A stretch of DNA of 64,000 bases from Candidatus Oxydemutatoraceae bacterium (GTDB lineage Bacteria; Pseudomonadota; Gammaproteobacteria; Poriferisulfidales; Oxydemutatoraceae): the NCBI GenBank assembly GCA_965219575.1, contig OZ244779.1, positions 780,769 to 844,768 on the forward strand, given 5' to 3'. Made by a program: the position numbers and the translations under genes. The notes beneath the pieces are model-generated. The model did not search any database. It was not told the DNA's origin and worked only from the letters and a program-made list of their open reading frames with translations. This document shows positions 4,498 to 11,228 of the stretch, piece by piece; positions within the stretch are counted from its first letter, which is position 1; every line of letters begins with the position of its first letter.

Positions 4498-4881
4498 GCC
4501 GATTGAGCCGGTAGGTCAATCGGCGTGACATTGTGCGAAACCCCAACACATAGTACAAAATGTAAAGCCTTTCCACAGGGTGGTTGCAATGGGGGGCTGT
4601 TGAAAAAGTGCGGACATCGCTCAAACCCAACCGCTGTGCGCCGTGAATATTTACAAACCGCCGTAGGGGCGGACTAGCATGTCCGCCCTAAAGTACCGTT
4701 CTGCACAGCCGTAATCGCTTGCGCCGGATGGTTTTGGTTTACATAAATTAACTGGTGTACGATTTTATTTGTGCAAACGCAGCGCGTTTCGAGAAGGTAT
4801 GTTATCTCCCTACGGTTCATAAAATACTTTTTCAACAGCCCCGTCGTGTCTGCACAAGCTAATTCCCCTCCGAAGGAGGGG
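4498..4881. repeat. Composite intergenic repeat: hairpin D, module E, TIR-bounded MITE-like unit with GTAG-REP, CCCCTCC hairpin
   Basis: GCCGATTGA..TCAATCGGC 4498-4524; TIRs GGGGCTGTTGAAAAAGT 4593-4609 and inverse 4826-4842; GTAGGGGCGGAC..GTCCGCCC 4663-4688; CCCCTCC..GGAGGGG 4865-4881; modules recur elsewhere in the window. Confidence 0.85.
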
Positions 4882-4922
4882 GCAGCAGTAATAAGCACGT
4901 TGGTGTTTATACAATAATTCAT
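4882..4922 (-). pseudogene. N-terminal stub of a DUF4411/PIN-like gene truncated by a repeat
   Basis: ATGA overlap with the ImmA/IrrE gene; MNYCINTNVLITA resembles PIN-like starts (YxxDTNVxI); sequence becomes repeat after about 14 codons. Confidence 0.55.
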
Positions 4923-6073
4923 AGTAGGGTTTCTAATTCCAACGCATCCGACACTTTCTTGATCCCGACCAATTTACAAAATTTATGCAAACCGATTTCT
5001 TGATTTCGATACATCTGCACAACCGTTTTAGAGTAAATAGTGCCGTACTGCTCCAGAGCCTCTTTTACTATATTTCTTGATATCCTTCCCCCTTGTAGCT
5101 TGTTTTTGTAAGCAAGATAATTTTTTCTCAACTGATTTTCAAGTGCATTGTATTGTGGTTGAGTGATAACATCCAGATGTTTCATTCTCACTAAAAAAGC
5201 ATAAGAACTGACCTGGAATTTTTTTGCCGGTTTTTCGATTTGTCTCATTTGTTTTTCTAATGGTTCCTCGTGAGAGAATGTTTCCACTTCGCGTAAAAAA
5301 TCTTCCTCGGGCATCAAAACCGCCCCGGCAAACATATCGCACCATTTTTCTTCGTCTTCCTGTAATTCTATTTTTTTTTGCTCGTCTAGAGCACTTTGTT
5401 TTTTAAGTAAGTGTCCCAACTCGTGAAACAATGTAAATGATTGTGCTTTATATGTATCGGAGTTATTGATGACGATAATCGGTAAGGTGTCATAATATAC
5501 GGACAGCCCTCGAAATTTATCAGGCTCAACTTTTGACCAGCTCGAGTATTTGCTGGTTGTAAAAATGAAGACATTATTATCTTCAAGCATACGCTTCCAT
5601 TCAATAAGTGGGTACGACATATCCGTACATCCTAACCACTTGCGAGTAATCTCTGCGGTAGCTTTGAAGTCACTTTCCATTATTTGCGGTGGCGAGAAAG
5701 GTTGTACGGGTTCTTCCATGTCGTCTCTGAATTCTAATAACAATTCTCTGAACCGTTCCACGTTTGCTATTACAGACCTTATTTCATAACCACTAATAGG
5801 ACTATTCCGGAATTTTCTATAAGATGCAAAATTTTCAAAACGGTATTTAGCAGGTAGTTCTCTCCTCAAAAAAACCCACGCTGGTACATGGTATCGCTTA
5901 GCGAGCTTTTCAATTTGCTTAATGGTGGGATATTTTTCACCTGCTTCAATGCCGGCAAGTGTACGCAATCCAGCTTTTTTCTCGGCTTGTTCTATACTCA
6001 ATCCGATTTGTTCTCGGCATTGACGCAGAATTTGAGGGTTGATATTTTCTATCTGCCGATTAGCCATTGCCAT
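4919..6073 (-). CDS. XRE-family HTH fused to ImmA/IrrE metallopeptidase
   Basis: N-terminal HTH; FTLFHELGH zinc motif; EEKWCDMFAGAVLMP. Confidence 0.9.
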   Translation of the reverse strand: MAMANRQIENINPQILRQCREQIGLSIEQAEKKAGLRTLAGIEAGEKYPTIKQIEKLAKRYHVPAWVFLRRELPAKYRFENFASYRKFRNSPISGYEIRSVIANVERFRELLLEFRDDMEEPVQPFSPPQIMESDFKATAEITRKWLGCTDMSYPLIEWKRMLEDNNVFIFTTSKYSSWSKVEPDKFRGLSVYYDTLPIIVINNSDTYKAQSFTLFHELGHLLKKQSALDEQKKIELQEDEEKWCDMFAGAVLMPEEDFLREVETFSHEEPLEKQMRQIEKPAKKFQVSSYAFLVRMKHLDVITQPQYNALENQLRKNYLAYKNKLQGGRISRNIVKEALEQYGTIYSKTVVQMYRNQEIGLHKFCKLVGIKKVSDALELETLL

Positions 6074-6094
6074 ATTTAAGGTTAGTACACCTAA

Positions 6095-6982
6095 TTAAGG
6101 TTCGTTTACTCGGTTTAGCGAGTCTCCCTCTATCACGCCCTGCATTCGTGCCGCTTTGATCGTATTTTCAATGAGGCTGGCAACCGTCATCGGGCCGGTG
6201 CCACCCGGCATCGGTGTAATCGCTCCGGCAACCTCTTTGACTTCGTCAAAAATGACATCGCCTATGATTTTTCCGTCTACCGAAGTGATACCTACATCAA
6301 AAACGGCAGCCCCCGGTTTGACGGCGGATTTGCCGATCAGTCCGTTGATGCCGGCGGCAGCGACGATAATGTCGGCATTACGGCAAATATCTTCTATAGC
6401 TTCGGTTTTAGAATGGCACAGCGTTACGCTCGCATCGATACCGTGCTTGCATAATAGTAGCATTTGCGGTATGCCGACCAGATACGATCGTCCTATCACA
6501 ACGGCGGTGCGCCCTTCGGTTGTAATGTTGTATTCTTTGATGAATCGCATGACACCCAACGGCGTACAAGGCACCATGCCGACCTCGTCTTTAATCAAGC
6601 GTCCCATGCTTTGTATGGTCAAGCCGTCAACATCCTTTTCCGGTGGAATCATTTCTAACAGACGGTCGGTGTCTAAGTGTTCGGGCAGAGGTAATTGTAG
6701 TAGGATACCGTGTACCTGATCATCGTTGGCAAGATTCAGTAGTGTGTCTTCGACTTGATCGTTGCTTACATCGGCGGATAATTCAACTAAACGAGGTGTC
6801 AACCCCGCTTTTTTAGCGAGCCGCATCTTCAAGTTCACATAAAGGCGACTCGGTGCATAATCACCGATTAGTACGGTAGCTAAAACAATCTCGGGATAGT
6901 TTAATTCGGCTAACTGCTCTGCACAATTTTGAGCGATCTTTTGCGACAGACTTTGTCCATCCATAATAATCGCCTGTTGCAT
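6095..6982 (-). CDS. folD: Bifunctional methylene-THF dehydrogenase / methenyl-THF cyclohydrolase
   Basis: GILLQLPLP, KDVDG, PCTPLG, GRSYLVG, ITPMPGGTGPMT. Confidence 0.96.
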   Translation of the reverse strand: MQQAIIMDGQSLSQKIAQNCAEQLAELNYPEIVLATVLIGDYAPSRLYVNLKMRLAKKAGLTPRLVELSADVSNDQVEDTLLNLANDDQVHGILLQLPLPEHLDTDRLLEMIPPEKDVDGLTIQSMGRLIKDEVGMVPCTPLGVMRFIKEYNITTEGRTAVVIGRSYLVGIPQMLLLCKHGIDASVTLCHSKTEAIEDICRNADIIVAAAGINGLIGKSAVKPGAAVFDVGITSVDGKIIGDVIFDEVKEVAGAITPMPGGTGPMTVASLIENTIKAARMQGVIEGDSLNRVNEP

Positions 6983-7006
6983 GATTGTGATCTCGGTGAA
7001 CTTGCC

Positions 7007-7930
7007 TTAAGTCGGTTGCTTGTCGGGGTGTAGATAGATTAGGCTTTTGCCTAGCTTGCCGCCGTAGTTGCCTGCCGAAATCATGATTAGACCTTCGGTA
7101 TTTTTGGATGCCGATATCGCCGCTTGGGTGGCATCGATGATAGCTTCTATGTTTCGACCGTTCATAATGATTTCCATCACCGAGGCAACTCCTTCGGGCA
7201 ACCCGTATTCTACATCGGGGTTTTGTTGGAGCATCGGACAGAATTTTTCGTAGGTGCTGGCAATCGTAAAATCGTAGCGGCTACCTGCCTTAGAGCCACT
7301 TCCGGCAATACCGCCCGGAAAAGTCGTGACGACCTCGGGCATCGGAGCAATCGCTGCAACACCTTTTTCGGCGGCGTCGAGTGCCGAATCGGTATCTTTG
7401 CCGAAGAACCATAAATTCCCGCCCATCAAACCTTCGCTATAGCCGAGACGGCGATCTAATATAAATTCTCCTCCGAGTATCGGTATCCACCACATCTTCC
7501 GCCCGAAACGTTCTATACGTTTTTGATAACCGTTGCCGAAGTAAGCGACTTTGCGTCCCATCTGATAATAGTCCTCGCTATCCTCCAGCGTATTGAAGCA
7601 AGACGCAGTCGGGCAAGTCAAGACATTTTGGCTGATACGCACCAACGCCGCTCGTTCAAGCCGTGCGACACGATCCTTCCAGAAGCGCGGCACATGTAGT
7701 TGGATAATTGCGCCCGGACGTCCGTCAGGGGTTTGCGCACGCTCGTCGCCGCCCGGGCCTACATAACGATCCATGCCGGCTTCGCAATCGCAGAGTATAG
7801 AACTAGACGCATTACCGGTGCAGGCGTTAATCGCATGGTCTAACCATTTACGATCTCTGGCAGTGATTAAAAACTCTACATAGAGACTCTTAAAGGCTTC
7901 TGCATAAGTATCGTCTATTTTGGCGGTCAT
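7007..7930 (-). CDS. fhcD: Formylmethanofuran:tetrahydromethanopterin formyltransferase family (Ftr/FhcD-like)
   Basis: IDDTYAEAF, CDCEAG, TPDGRPG, QNVLTCPT, GGNL, FPGGIAGSGSK, ISAGNYGGKLG. Confidence 0.9.
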   Translation of the reverse strand: MTAKIDDTYAEAFKSLYVEFLITARDRKWLDHAINACTGNASSSILCDCEAGMDRYVGPGGDERAQTPDGRPGAIIQLHVPRFWKDRVARLERAALVRISQNVLTCPTASCFNTLEDSEDYYQMGRKVAYFGNGYQKRIERFGRKMWWIPILGGEFILDRRLGYSEGLMGGNLWFFGKDTDSALDAAEKGVAAIAPMPEVVTTFPGGIAGSGSKAGSRYDFTIASTYEKFCPMLQQNPDVEYGLPEGVASVMEIIMNGRNIEAIIDATQAAISASKNTEGLIMISAGNYGGKLGKSLIYLHPDKQPT

Positions 7931-8562
7931 TAGTCCCTTCCTCGGCCCTCGTAGATGTCTTTTTCGGTAATGACTTTATCCATGAATATATCGTGCGGTC
8001 CTACCAGTATTTCTTCGAATAACTGTGATTCGTAACAGATAGCTATCAGCGGACAATCTTTGCGTGCCCTTTCCAACAGGCGGTCATAGTATCCTTGACC
8101 GTTGCCCATGCGCCCGCCGTTGCGGTCAAAACCGACACCGGGCACCATAACGATATCAAGTTCTTCGGGTTCTACCTCTTTGTCGGGGTTACCCCATAAT
8201 TCGCGTGGTGGTTCCAAGATGTTCCATTTACCGACGATCAACTCGTCGAAATTGCTCAAATGCCAAAGTCCCAACTTATTGTCGCCTTTCTCGTCCACCG
8301 TGCAGTAGGGGACGATAATTTTCTTGTCTTGTTTATCGATTTCTAGTTGCAGATGTTTTTTAGTGCGCGTCTCGGAACGGCAATCTATATACCACATTAC
8401 GGTTTTCGCATTTTGGTATTCCGGCAAAGCAATGAATTTTTCGCAGATGCTTTCGCTAATTTCATCTTTGTTTTCTTGCGCTGCTCTTGCGTCGTATGCT
8501 TTGCGCCGCATGATGTTTTTTTGTTCCATCAGAGCCTTTAGCTCTTCTTGTGTTAATGGCAT
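7930..8562 (-). CDS. 5-formyltetrahydrofolate cyclo-ligase
   Basis: ILEP, DIVMVPGVGFDRNGGRMGNGQGYYDRLL, HDIFMDKVITE; TAATG overlap with the ftr gene. Confidence 0.93.
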   Translation of the reverse strand: MPLTQEELKALMEQKNIMRRKAYDARAAQENKDEISESICEKFIALPEYQNAKTVMWYIDCRSETRTKKHLQLEIDKQDKKIIVPYCTVDEKGDNKLGLWHLSNFDELIVGKWNILEPPRELWGNPDKEVEPEELDIVMVPGVGFDRNGGRMGNGQGYYDRLLERARKDCPLIAICYESQLFEEILVGPHDIFMDKVITEKDIYEGRGRD

Positions 8563-8653
8563 ATTAAACTCCTTAAAATTGAAGTGGGATTAATCATTTT
8601 CGTTAGTTCACGAATATCGGGTTTTGTTTAAGTAGGCTATTATAAACGATTAG

Positions 8654-9085
8654 TCAATGACAACTAAGCCCTAATTTTTTCAACCGCCAATAGTTATACG
8701 GCCATGGTGTGACAAAGCCTGCCACCAATATAGGCAATATTGCCGCAAGCGTCAGCCTTGCCTCTCCGGTGATAATAAAATCGGTGGTATTCATCGCTAT
8801 CTCCATTGCCAACATGGCAATAAAACTCATCCCCAGTGCCGTCCGCAATGCGGTTACAAACGGGAAGTTTTGTCGTTTAATCAAAATAAAAGTCTCTAAT
8901 AAAATGCTACTAATCAAACCATTGACCATTGCGAGCAACATAATAAACAGTGTAGGCCACCGAATACCGGCAATCTGGAAATATGCAATCGTGCCTAAAT
9001 CACCGGTTGCGCAGCCGATCAAACACCACCAAGTGTTATATGCGCTCTTTTTCCAAATAGGACCGGATGTCCAAAACTCAAGCAT
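8654..9085 (-). CDS. DUF4396-like membrane protein
   Basis: NTWWCLIGCxxGD, GMSFIAMLAME, PYNYWRLKK; several hydrophobic helices. Confidence 0.75.
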   Translation of the reverse strand: MLEFWTSGPIWKKSAYNTWWCLIGCATGDLGTIAYFQIAGIRWPTLFIMLLAMVNGLISSILLETFILIKRQNFPFVTALRTALGMSFIAMLAMEIAMNTTDFIITGEARLTLAAILPILVAGFVTPWPYNYWRLKKLGLSCH

Positions 9086-9229
9086 CGTATCTATCTAATT
9101 ATTAATATGTTTAACCATCAATTTTTGCGAGCCACTTGTAGGAGTGAACCTACACAATCACTGCATTATGTAAAGTATCAAATTGACACACCTGCACTGT
9201 TTCGCACTTATAAGGATAAACCTTAGTTT

Positions 9230-9403
9230 ATCCGACCTGCATATCTACGCAGAGTTTCTGCACAACGTGATACCACTTGCCCAACCGGAGCAAGTGGTGG
9301 TTTTATAGTCTATCCGACCTACATACCCATGCGTAGGGGCGGACTAACATGTCCGCCTTCGCACAATGTCACGCCACTTGCCCCACTAGGGCAAGTGGCG
9401 GTT
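9230..9403. repeat. Two-unit tandem hairpin repeat with a GTAG-REP in the second unit
   Basis: TATCCGACCT..CCACTTGC..GCAAGTGG occurs twice; GTAGGGGCGGACTAACATGTCCGCC near 9333. Confidence 0.75.
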
Positions 9404-11080
9404 CTATTCGGTCACCGCACCTTCGGAAGCGGAAGCTACGAGCCGTGCATATTTAGCCAGTGTGCCTCGTCGTTGCTCGGTTTTGGGGGCTTTCCATTGC
9501 TTTAGTCGCTGTTTGATCCGTGTTTCGGACAAGTTGAGATTTATAGTCTTTGCTACTGCGTCGATGGTAATAGAATCGCCGTTTTTGACGATAGCCAAGG
9601 GACCGCCGGTTGCCGCTTCGGGAGTGATATGTCCGACGACAAAGCCGTGACTGCCTCCGGAAAATCGCCCGTCGGTAATCAACGCAACATGGGACCCTAA
9701 TCCTTGCCCCATAATTGCGGAAGTCGGCGATAGCATTTCTCGCATGCCGGGGCCTCCACGCGGGCCTTCGTAGCGAATTACGATAACATTTCCTTTGTTA
9801 ATTTTTCCCGACAAAATATCTTGCAATGCCTCCTCTTCGGAATTGAATACCCGAGCAGTCCCGGTGAATTGCGTGCCTTCTTTGCCGGTGATTTTGGCGA
9901 CCGCACCCCGAGGTGCTAGGTTGCCTCGCAGAATCACGAGGTGGCTGTCGGCTTTTATCGGATTGTCCCAATCGCGGATAATTTGTTGCTTTTTAGGATA
10001 GTCGGAAGTATCTTCTAGGTCTTGTTCCAAGGTTTTACCGGTAACGCTTAGACAGTCGCCGTGCAGCAATCCTTTTTCGAGCAACCGTTTCATCAACGGG
10101 CGTATGCCACCGATGCGAATCAACTCGGACATGCGGTAGCGACCGCTGGGTCTAAGATCGGCAAGCACCGGCACCTTGCATCCTATTCTCGAAAAATCGT
10201 CGAGTTTTAGTTTTACACCGGCACTATGCGCCATCGCAATCAGATGTAATACTGCATTAGTCGAACCACCCAACGCAGTGACGACTGTGATTGCGTTTTC
10301 AAATGCCTTTTTGGTCATAATATCGCGTGGCAGTATTTGCTTTTTGATTAAATTGATTAACAACTTTCCGGCACCGGTACAATCTTCGGACTTGGCGCGC
10401 GATACCGCATTTTGTGCCGAGCTTCCGGGTCTGCTCATGCCGAGAGCCTCTATCGCCGAAGCCATCGTATTGGCGGTGTACATGCCACCGCAAGAACCCG
10501 GACCGGGAATCGCGCAAGATTCAATCTGCTTGAATTGTTTGGCACTCATTTTGCCTTTTGCTTTACTTCCCACGCTTTCAAATACACTGATGATATCTAG
10601 TTTTTGTTTACCTAAAATGCCCGGTAAAATGGTGCCGCCGTATATGAATATCGCCGGACGATTTAGACGGGCGATTGCCATCATGCAACCCGGCATATTT
10701 TTGTCGCAACCGCCGATAGCGATGAGACCGTCAAAACCCTCGCATCCTACAACCGTCTCTATCGAGTCGGCAATCACTTCACGCGACACCAGAGAATATT
10801 TCATACCCTCGGTGCCCATAGAAATGCCGTCGGAAACGGTAATCGTATTGAATATCAGAGCTTTGCCGCCGGCATCGTCAACCGCGCTCGCCGCCCGTCT
10901 AGCCAGACGATCAATGTGCATATTGCAGGGTGTGACCTCGGCCCATGTCGAAGCAACCCCGACTTGTGGTTTGTTAAAATCTTTGTCTTTGAAACCTACG
11001 GCGCGCAGCATCGAGCGACTGGGGGCACGCGCGTCGCCGTCGACGATTATCGAAGAGTGCGGTCTAATGTTTTTAGCCAT
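9404..11080 (-). CDS. ilvD: Dihydroxy-acid dehydratase
   Basis: [40 protein letters not shown]; ATG at 11080 preferred to the upstream TTG. Confidence 0.97.
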
Positions 11081-11228
11081 TGCGCTATTGTACAACAATA
11101 CCTCAGGTAGGCGAATGTTATTGAATCTCCGTGTAAGCGCAAAGTAGTAATGTCACCTTTCGCCAAAGTAGAAATGTCACCTTTAGGGGACAATAAAGCA
11201 TTTTTAACCCAGCTTAGGAGAAGATGCA

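Follow-up and report, generated by a model that had tools for sequence, protein, structure and literature searches.

An Ftr-family gene linked to 5-formyltetrahydrofolate cyclo-ligase in marine Gammaproteobacteria: a candidate bridge from methanofuran-bound one-carbon units to folate

The three-gene locus and the one-carbon genes of its genome

The 64,000-nucleotide stretch of the Candidatus Oxydemutatoraceae bacterium genome analysed here (the window; GenBank assembly GCA_965219575.1, contig OZ244779.1) carries a compact minus-strand module of three genes, which encode a 5-formyltetrahydrofolate (5-formyl-THF) cyclo-ligase (MTHFS), a member of the Ftr/FhcD formyltransferase family that we designate Ftr2, and FolD (Table 1). 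The window spans C1:780769-844768 of a single 2.37-Mb contig (C1), and the genome is 98.9% complete. Positions 7928-7932 read CATTA on the plus strand, that is, TAATG on the coding strand, so that the TAA that ends MTHFS and the ATG that opens Ftr2 overlap by a single base at 7930; Ftr2 terminates with a stop codon at 7007-7009, and the start codon of folD reaches up to 6982. The overlap and the placement of folD 24 bp further on, both described in the initial annotation, are borne out by the open reading frame (ORF) coordinates and the sequence. A promoter and terminator scan of positions 4800-9500 returned 12 promoter-like elements (9.0 in shuffled sequence) and 8 terminator-like elements (5.0 in shuffled sequence), numbers near the shuffled background, with nothing informative between MTHFS, Ftr2 and folD. 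A search of sequencing runs returned no RNA run that contains the stretch. Among relatives, the gap between MTHFS and Ftr2 is -4 to +6 nucleotides in many loci.

Table 1. Features of the module, with positions numbered from the first base of the window
Feature	Position	Strand	Description
MTHFS (5-formyl-THF cyclo-ligase)	8562..7930	minus	210 aa; first gene of the module; PF01812, TIGR02727
Ftr2 (Ftr/FhcD family)	7930..7007	minus	307 aa; PF01913, PF02741, TIGR03119
FolD (bifunctional methylene-THF dehydrogenase/methenyl-THF cyclohydrolase)	6982..6095	minus	295 aa; PF00763, PF02882
TAATG junction of MTHFS and Ftr2	7928..7932	minus	read from sequence; MTHFS stop and Ftr2 start
Ftr2-folD spacer	6983..7006	minus	24 nt; no terminator predicted inside

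MTHFS matches PF01812 over the full profile (133.5 bits, positions 2-186 of 186) and TIGR02727 (134.3 bits; cut-off, 84.9), and its best matches among solved structures are MTHFS enzymes of bacteria and human (1ydm, 1sou, 2jcb and 3hxt). None of the residues K15, R19, G155, G157, Y158, Y159 and D160 varies across the 34 sequences compared; we take the C-terminal G-x-G-Y-Y-D motif and the N-terminal basic residues to be family motifs. FolD contains both its catalytic and its NAD(P)-binding domain (PF00763, 100 bits; PF02882, 188.3 bits), and the best NCBIfam FolD models score it at 285-208 bits, under their lineage-specific cut-offs. The module holds the only MTHFS of the genome and the only FolD above the Pfam cut-off, so these are sole genome copies and not dedicated extras.

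Ftr2 matches both lobes of the Ftr family at full length (PF01913, 141.6 bits, residues 3-151; PF02741, 158.4 bits, residues 154-301). On TIGR03119, the FhcD equivalog model, it scores 295.2 bits, barely above the cut-off of 292.6, while the FhcD of the same genome, to which it is 39% identical, scores 416.7. In sequence it resembles archaeal Ftr (212-229 bits) more closely than Methylobacterium extorquens FhcD (158 bits). An AlphaFold2 model (predicted local distance difference test score, 86) aligns with 1ftr and 6s6y_D at Foldseek TM-scores of 0.83 and 0.81, respectively.

The canonical fhcB-A-D-C cluster lies at C1:1814201-1818801, 1.03 Mb from Ftr2 (C1:787778-788698). Tblastn with the FhcB, FhcA and FhcC of this genome recovered one copy of each, all in that cluster and outside the window, in agreement with the initial annotation, which had seen no fhcA, fhcB or fhcC in the window. 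Since the organism has its own FhcD within fhcB-A-D-C, Ftr2 is not a subunit of the Fhc complex, and the concern that it might be the only fhcD of the genome falls away. A single Mch, sought together with the separate fhcBADC, is likewise present, as are one Fae, two Mtd-like (Mpt_N) genes, genes for tetrahydromethanopterin (H4MPT) biosynthesis and a gene of the XoxF/MxaF-type pyrroloquinoline quinone methanol/ethanol dehydrogenase family (777.6 bits). The second Mpt_N protein (C1:2273727-2274590, L012:6728-7594; 288 aa) is 33% identical to the Mtd-like gene of the H4MPT cluster, is encoded near no other one-carbon gene and may be an MtdA-type methylene-THF/H4MPT dehydrogenase.

A serine-cycle cluster with sga-, mcl-, mtkA-, mtkB- and hpr-like genes is found at C1:~340.8-346.1 kb (glyA, ppc and gck were not searched for). 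It encodes a malate-CoA ligase beta subunit that scores 616.1 on NF010647 (cut-off, 604), a BhcA/Sga-like aminotransferase, an HpcH-type lyase and a glyoxylate/hydroxypyruvate reductase-like protein. The succinyl/malyl-CoA ligase pair in this cluster, with an MtkA model match above cut-off, is the only such pair that tblastn recovered from the genome at E<1e-8, and a separate SucCD may therefore be missing. A search of the genome with the formate-THF ligase (FTHFS) profile gave a best match of 19.5 bits against a cut-off of 27; the ftfL gene, which the route proposed in the initial annotation would make dispensable, is thus absent. The RuBisCO large subunit was not found in the genome, and no hexulose-phosphate synthase scored above cut-off. 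Judged by its gene content, the organism is methylotroph-like on paper, and its only recognisable assimilation route requires methylene-THF, with the usual formate-to-folate enzyme missing.

The Ftr2 clade and its linkage to MTHFS

We performed a phylogenetic analysis of 102 rows, comprising the window Ftr2, the FhcD of the same genome, 70 non-redundant Ftr2 loci (what remained of 155 usable sequences after thinning at 88% identity) and 30 representatives of full length, using a quick IQ-TREE search without bootstrap. All 71 Ftr2 rows fall on one side of a branch with a length of 1.33 changes per column and a support of 100 in the Shimodaira-Hasegawa-like approximate likelihood ratio test, branches within the clade are short, and the gammaproteobacterial Ftr2 are nested in the wider clade. 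In this reconstruction Ftr2 is a separate, slowly evolving clade. A search of ~15 billion proteins, with one representative per 50%-identity cluster, recovered one full-length relative at 64% identity, in a cluster bearing Planctomycetota names; the next full-length relatives are ~42% identical.

Comparison of the Ftr2 clade with 24 canonical sequences identified 53 conserved positions common to both, among them E253, the aligned counterpart of the catalytic Glu245 in Methanopyrus kandleri Ftr (1ftr). This residue is invariant in 34 of 34 Ftr2 sequences, and its equivalent is conserved in the canonical Ftr/FhcD set too; passages of PMC6926001 describe the catalytic protonated glutamate of the family as Glu245 in M. 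kandleri and Glu252 in M. extorquens. Set against these shared positions, the canonical Arg19 (96% conserved) is replaced by Glu in 99% of Ftr2 sequences, a fixed insertion, H79-V-P81-R82-F83, is followed by K85-D86-R87, and further changes place N102 for Cys, D159 for Glu and T268 for Met. Together with the long stem, these fixed differences point to a functional shift of Ftr2, and the R19E replacement with the HVPRF insertion argues that at least one substrate site has been altered.

A scan of species genomes returned at least 563 stretches encoding Ftr2 relatives, of which we studied the best 80 loci (77-98% identity; the genome set). These come from marine Gammaproteobacteria-type metagenome-assembled and single-cell genomes, the nearest labelled Candidatus Porisulfidus and Candidatus Oxydemutatoraceae. 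A metagenome scan with a planctomycete-type Ftr2 returned 293 relatives, the best 80 loci of which, 57-74% identical to the window Ftr2, form the metagenome set. Where the upstream flank is 700 bp or longer, MTHFS is the gene immediately before Ftr2, on the same strand, in 77 of 77 loci of the genome set and 49 of 62 loci of the metagenome set, with partial copies in 2 of 3 and 10 of 18 shorter loci, respectively. When all ORFs of 100 aa or more from the 80 metagenome loci were clustered, MTHFS emerged as the only conserved neighbour, and in the loci examined Ftr2 never adjoins fhcA, fhcB or fhcC, with no Fhc gene among the conserved neighbours. The linkage of Ftr2 to MTHFS is far beyond chance, and the question raised with the initial annotation, whether this Ftr forms its own clade that co-localises with the cyclo-ligase, is answered in the affirmative.

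The third gene behaves differently. FolD follows Ftr2 within 1.2 kb in 62 of 77 loci of the genome set and in 0 of 61 loci of the metagenome set, in which no serine-cycle gene was seen. The initial annotation had treated the three genes as one linked unit: its pairing of MTHFS with Ftr2 is conserved, and the attachment of folD is a gammaproteobacterial trait. Because MTHFS is kept in both sets and FolD in one, the conserved unit is MTHFS plus Ftr2, and FolD and the serine-cycle genes joined the module in the gammaproteobacterial lineage. Sga-, Mcl- and MtkAB-like genes lie downstream on the same strand in 63 of the 80 genome-set loci; the order is FolD-Sga-Mcl-MtkA-MtkB in 39 loci and Sga-Mcl-MtkA-MtkB without FolD in 12. 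Fifteen loci of the set have only FolD, the genus of the window among them.

MTHFS does not adjoin Ftr2 in 13 of the 62 metagenome loci, and 8 of these belong to a marine planctomycete-type subclade in which an unrelated 207-aa ORF occupies the place of MTHFS (L103:5168-5791, also seen in L095-L104 and L122; the ORFs of nine loci cluster). We considered this ORF as a diverged MTHFS and rejected that assignment, as it has no Pfam match and a BLASTP E value of 2.4 against the MTHFS of the window.

In 53 species genomes of the window's GTDB order, with an Ftr2-type match defined as at least 70% identity, 50 genomes had such a match, one of them partial, and the three genomes without were 73-79% complete. 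All 41 of 41 near-complete genomes carry Ftr2, the carriers include genomes of 0.9-1.2 Mb, and nearly all genomes of the order also encode a canonical FhcD at 37-44% identity. MTHFS was found in 50 of the 53 genomes, as a single copy in 50 of 50, and the two genes are adjacent by coordinates in 49 of 49 genomes in which both were found; FTHFS exceeded its cut-off in 3 of 53. In an even draw of 401 genomes of the class (Ftr2 taken at 73% identity or more), 54 had an Ftr-family gene and ten had Ftr2, from at least five families beyond the window's own, with canonical FhcD in 10 of 10. Three of the ten Ftr2 genomes encode FtfL, compared with 36 of 44 FhcD-only genomes, and leaving out four unpublished genomes (G346, G358, G192 and G091) changes these counts to 2 of 9 and 33 of 41.

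The MTHFS sequences linked to Ftr2 have a mean column identity of 66% (34 sequences from the genome and metagenome sets, several phyla). In the class sample, MTHFS was 66-100% identical to that of the window in Ftr2 genomes and 39-57% identical in seven genomes without Ftr2, and the remaining MTHFS reached at most 34% identity among the matches listed. In a 38-row MTHFS tree, the copies from four of these seven Ftr2-less genomes, all gammaproteobacterial, have end branches of 0.74-1.01, compared with a median of 0.16, and the groupings of the Ftr2-linked copies mirror those of the Ftr2 tree, which indicates that the pair has been co-inherited. MTHFS seems to be more constrained when paired with Ftr2, as would be expected if it carried a main flux. 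We rejected an MTHFS subfamily exclusive to Ftr2, since the four Ftr2-less gammaproteobacteria (L175-L178; L175 is G390:C1:2046000-2060000) have copies 47-57% identical to that of the window. In three of these four genomes MTHFS directly follows ilvD; in the fourth it adjoins an nspC-like pyridoxal phosphate decarboxylase gene and a divergent Mpt_N (Mtd-like) gene. A complex prediction for two Ftr2 chains and one MTHFS, with alignments of 34 rows each, scored 0.00 against a mark of 0.32, a value that counts neither way on binding.

Directly downstream of folD, on the minus strand at 4919-6073, lies a gene with HTH_3 and Peptidase_M78 domains (ImmA/IrrE-like, of the spr1629 repressor/antitoxin type). 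Of the 80 related loci, just two (L014 and L015) have it behind FolD by tblastn, so that it looks like a recent insertion at a site where most relatives carry serine-cycle genes. A DUF4396 membrane protein gene (minus strand, 8654-9085) separates ilvD (9404-11098) from MTHFS and occupies that site in only 5 of 80 related loci; elsewhere MTHFS directly follows ilvD. Near fhcBADC, an IS1595-family transposase gene lies ~3 kb upstream of fhcB (L003:3611-4285) and an N-acetylglutaminylglutamine amidotransferase gene ~5 kb downstream.

A proposed route into folate and its alternatives

We propose that the module probably channels one-carbon units from methanopterin and methanofuran into the folate pool of bacteria in which the usual formate-to-folate enzyme is mostly absent. 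Ftr2 would retain the Ftr fold and catalytic glutamate with a changed substrate, and would transfer a formyl group from the H4MPT/methanofuran oxidation pathway to N5 of tetrahydrofolate (THF); the most economical and conservative donor would be formyl-methanofuran or formyl-methylofuran, with formyl-H4MPT as the alternative. MTHFS would then close 5-formyl-THF to 5,10-methenyl-THF at the cost of one ATP, and the irreversibility of this step would fix the direction of the route. FolD would either reduce methenyl-THF to methylene-THF, supplying serine hydroxymethyltransferase and the serine cycle, or open it to 10-formyl-THF, as used in purine synthesis and initiator-tRNA formylation. From the gene identities, the gene order, the conservation of the pair, the clade and the genome content we infer the acceptor, the donor, the direction and the in vivo link to the serine cycle, and we put the chance that Ftr2 makes 5-formyl-THF, MTHFS turns it into methenyl-THF and FolD passes this onward at about even.

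MTHFS has one known reaction type, the ATP-dependent and irreversible closure of an N5-formyl pterin to its methenyl form. While 5-formyl-H4MPT is cyclised by Mch without ATP, cyclisation of 5-formyl-THF requires ATP, which would explain the pairing of Ftr2 with an ATP-dependent cyclo-ligase rather than with Mch. Since a transferase of an N5-formylating type is fixed beside MTHFS across phyla, the simplest candidate product is 5-formyl-THF, and the presence of FolD and serine-cycle genes downstream, with FtfL mostly absent in the gammaproteobacteria, fits this explanation. The module MTHFS looks like an ordinary folate enzyme; as the sole copy, always beside Ftr2 within the order, it favours THF as the likely carrier. 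The serine-cycle cluster that the module heads in relatives, which was not visible from the window when the bridge was first suggested, strengthens the idea. All the genomic checks suggested with the initial annotation point towards its interpretation, which they support in part. More broadly, a two-gene, ATP-driven and formate-independent bridge between H4MPT/methanofuran and folate may have largely replaced formate-THF ligase across this abundant marine and sponge-associated gammaproteobacterial order, planktonic genomes of 1 Mb included, a proposal to which we give even weight for and against; with the same middling confidence, we suggest that the two genes also reached, as a pair, Planctomycetota as well as unidentified bacteria from soil and lakes.

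Several observations weigh against this proposal. MTHFS of the same subfamily stands beside ilvD in genomes without Ftr2, and the cyclo-ligase is therefore not dedicated to Ftr2. The linkage to FolD is lineage-specific, given the metagenome loci, and the loci that lack an adjoining MTHFS include the marine planctomycete subclade. Ftr2 and FtfL are not mutually exclusive, as the three Ftr2 genomes with FtfL in the class sample demonstrate, and because related genomes are not independent, the scarcity of FtfL amounts to a trend, without the force of a statistical test. The R19E replacement could mean that the methanofuran site, and not the pterin site, has been rebuilt. According to passages of PMC6926001, FhcABCD of M. 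extorquens binds methylofuran tightly as a prosthetic group and hardly any of the cofactor is free, so that Ftr2, as a free-standing protein, may have access to formyl-methylofuran only by docking on Fhc. Bound methylofuran and R19E together thus make Fhc docking, or direct transfer from 5-formyl-H4MPT, possible variants.

The rebuilt binding site indicated by R19E and the basic HVPRF-x-K-D-R insertion also lends itself to another interpretation, namely that Ftr2 formylates or deformylates an amine or a pterin beyond THF and H4MPT, or draws on a donor outside the methanofuran pathway, with the link to MTHFS reflecting a shared intermediate. The planctomycete subclade, which pairs Ftr2 with a 207-aa protein and not with MTHFS, would be in keeping with such a ligand. 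We nevertheless regard this as unlikely, considering that cyclisation of N5-formyl pterins is the only reaction type known for MTHFS and that the folate and serine-cycle context is consistent across the 63 gammaproteobacterial loci noted above.

The main rival, and in our view rather improbable, keeps both enzymes on H4MPT: Ftr2 would be an ordinary formyl-methanofuran:H4MPT transferase and MTHFS an ATP-driven 5-formyl-H4MPT cyclo-ligase, providing an irreversible bypass of Mch. A precedent is found in passages of Kaster et al. 2011 (PMC3087415), where folate-free methanogens are noted still to encode a putative MTHFS and an enzyme acting on 5-formyl-H4MPT is suggested; Ftr2, moreover, still exceeds the FhcD equivalog cut-off and is always found alongside the H4MPT pathway. 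Yet the genome already has Mch, which needs no ATP. Its MTHFS resembles the bacterial folate enzyme and is the sole copy here and in every genome of the order that has one, and the operon partners, FolD and the serine-cycle genes, use folate. Unchanged substrates would also leave the long stem and fixed substitutions of Ftr2 unexplained.

5-Formyl-THF is an inhibitory by-product of serine hydroxymethyltransferase, and formyl transfer by Ftr is reversible. Ftr2 might then run as a salvage enzyme, moving the formyl group off 5-formyl-THF onto methanofuran or H4MPT for oxidation, an ATP-free second clearance beside MTHFS, with which it would be co-regulated. In this case 5-formyl-THF would be the substrate of both enzymes, and the position of MTHFS alone beside ilvD in Ftr2-less relatives would be in line with a clearance role. 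A minor role of this kind fits poorly with the retention of Ftr2 in genomes of 0.9-1.2 Mb, with a module that heads serine-cycle operons, with the scarcity of FtfL and with the slower evolution of Ftr2-linked MTHFS (median end branch of 0.16 versus 0.74-1.01), and we consider it very unlikely. Finally, that Ftr2 is a redundant second FhcD isozyme whose place beside housekeeping folate genes is functionally meaningless is highly improbable: it belongs to the Ftr/FhcD family by all sequence and fold tests, and FolD and MTHFS are housekeeping copies, but the adjacency is preserved across phyla while other neighbours vary, the clade is distinct with fixed differences, and a redundant gene would not be expected to persist in every near-complete genome of the order (41 of 41), very small ones included.

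Relation to known systems and implications

Ftr2 shares with archaeal Ftr (EC 2.3.1.101; 1FTR/2FHJ, 1M5H and 1M5S) the two-lobe fold (TM-score, 0.82-0.83), both Pfam domains, ~40% identity, the catalytic glutamate and a free-standing gene outside an fhc cluster. It differs in R19E, the HVPRF insertion and the long stem, in its coupling to an ATP-dependent folate cyclo-ligase instead of Mch, and in its proposed acceptor, THF. FhcD of the FhcABCD complex (6S6Y; described in passages of Hemmann et al. 2019, PMC6926001) belongs to the same family, and the genomes with Ftr2 also encode the H4MPT oxidation pathway. Unlike FhcD, which is encoded inside fhcB-A-D-C, Ftr2 lies away from fhcA, fhcB and fhcC and shares only 39% identity with its counterpart in the genome.

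Serine-cycle methylotrophs such as M. extorquens use FtfL, Fch and MtdA to take formate through 10-formyl-THF and methenyl-THF to methylene-THF. The proposed route would likewise start from one-carbon units oxidised on H4MPT, end at methylene-THF and cost one ATP, and its genes occupy the same place beside sga, mtk and mcl; unlike the FtfL route, it would involve neither free formate nor FtfL, would enter at N5 and not N10, and would have MTHFS and FolD in place of Fch and MtdA. The module MTHFS agrees in family and motifs with housekeeping MTHFS (EC 6.3.3.2; Bacillus subtilis YqgN, 1YDM; human, 3HXT), whose known role is salvage of a side product, whereas here the enzyme would carry the main assimilatory flux and is unusually conserved. 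Glutamate formimidoyl/formyl-transferase also handles N5-formyl-THF and is functionally tied to MTHFS, but its fold is unrelated to Ftr and its donor is N-formyl- or formiminoglutamate, not a methanofuran or H4MPT carrier. The MTHFS homologue of folate-free methanogens occurs, as here, in an organism with Ftr and H4MPT; it is proposed to act on 5-formyl-H4MPT, and, unlike for the present module, the passages of PMC3087415 on this enzyme give no gene linkage to Ftr.

In open-access papers and bioRxiv preprints we found no description of a link between Ftr and MTHFS or of a formyl-methanofuran:THF transferase. The protein families involved are already known, and it is the proposed specificity and pathway that would be new. 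In textbook serine-cycle methylotrophy, one-carbon units pass from H4MPT and methanofuran to folate only through free formate and formate-THF ligase. If the proposal is true, the module would provide a second, direct link between the two one-carbon carrier systems, a substrate specificity new to a family so far regarded as limited to H4MPT, and the first on-pathway, non-repair role for MTHFS. With only two or three genes, the module could be put to use in synthetic methylotrophy. The way in which one-carbon assimilation is read from genomes would change as well, since a large group of marine gammaproteobacteria, streamlined planktonic lineages and sponge symbionts among them, would at present be scored as lacking an entry into folate that they may in fact possess.

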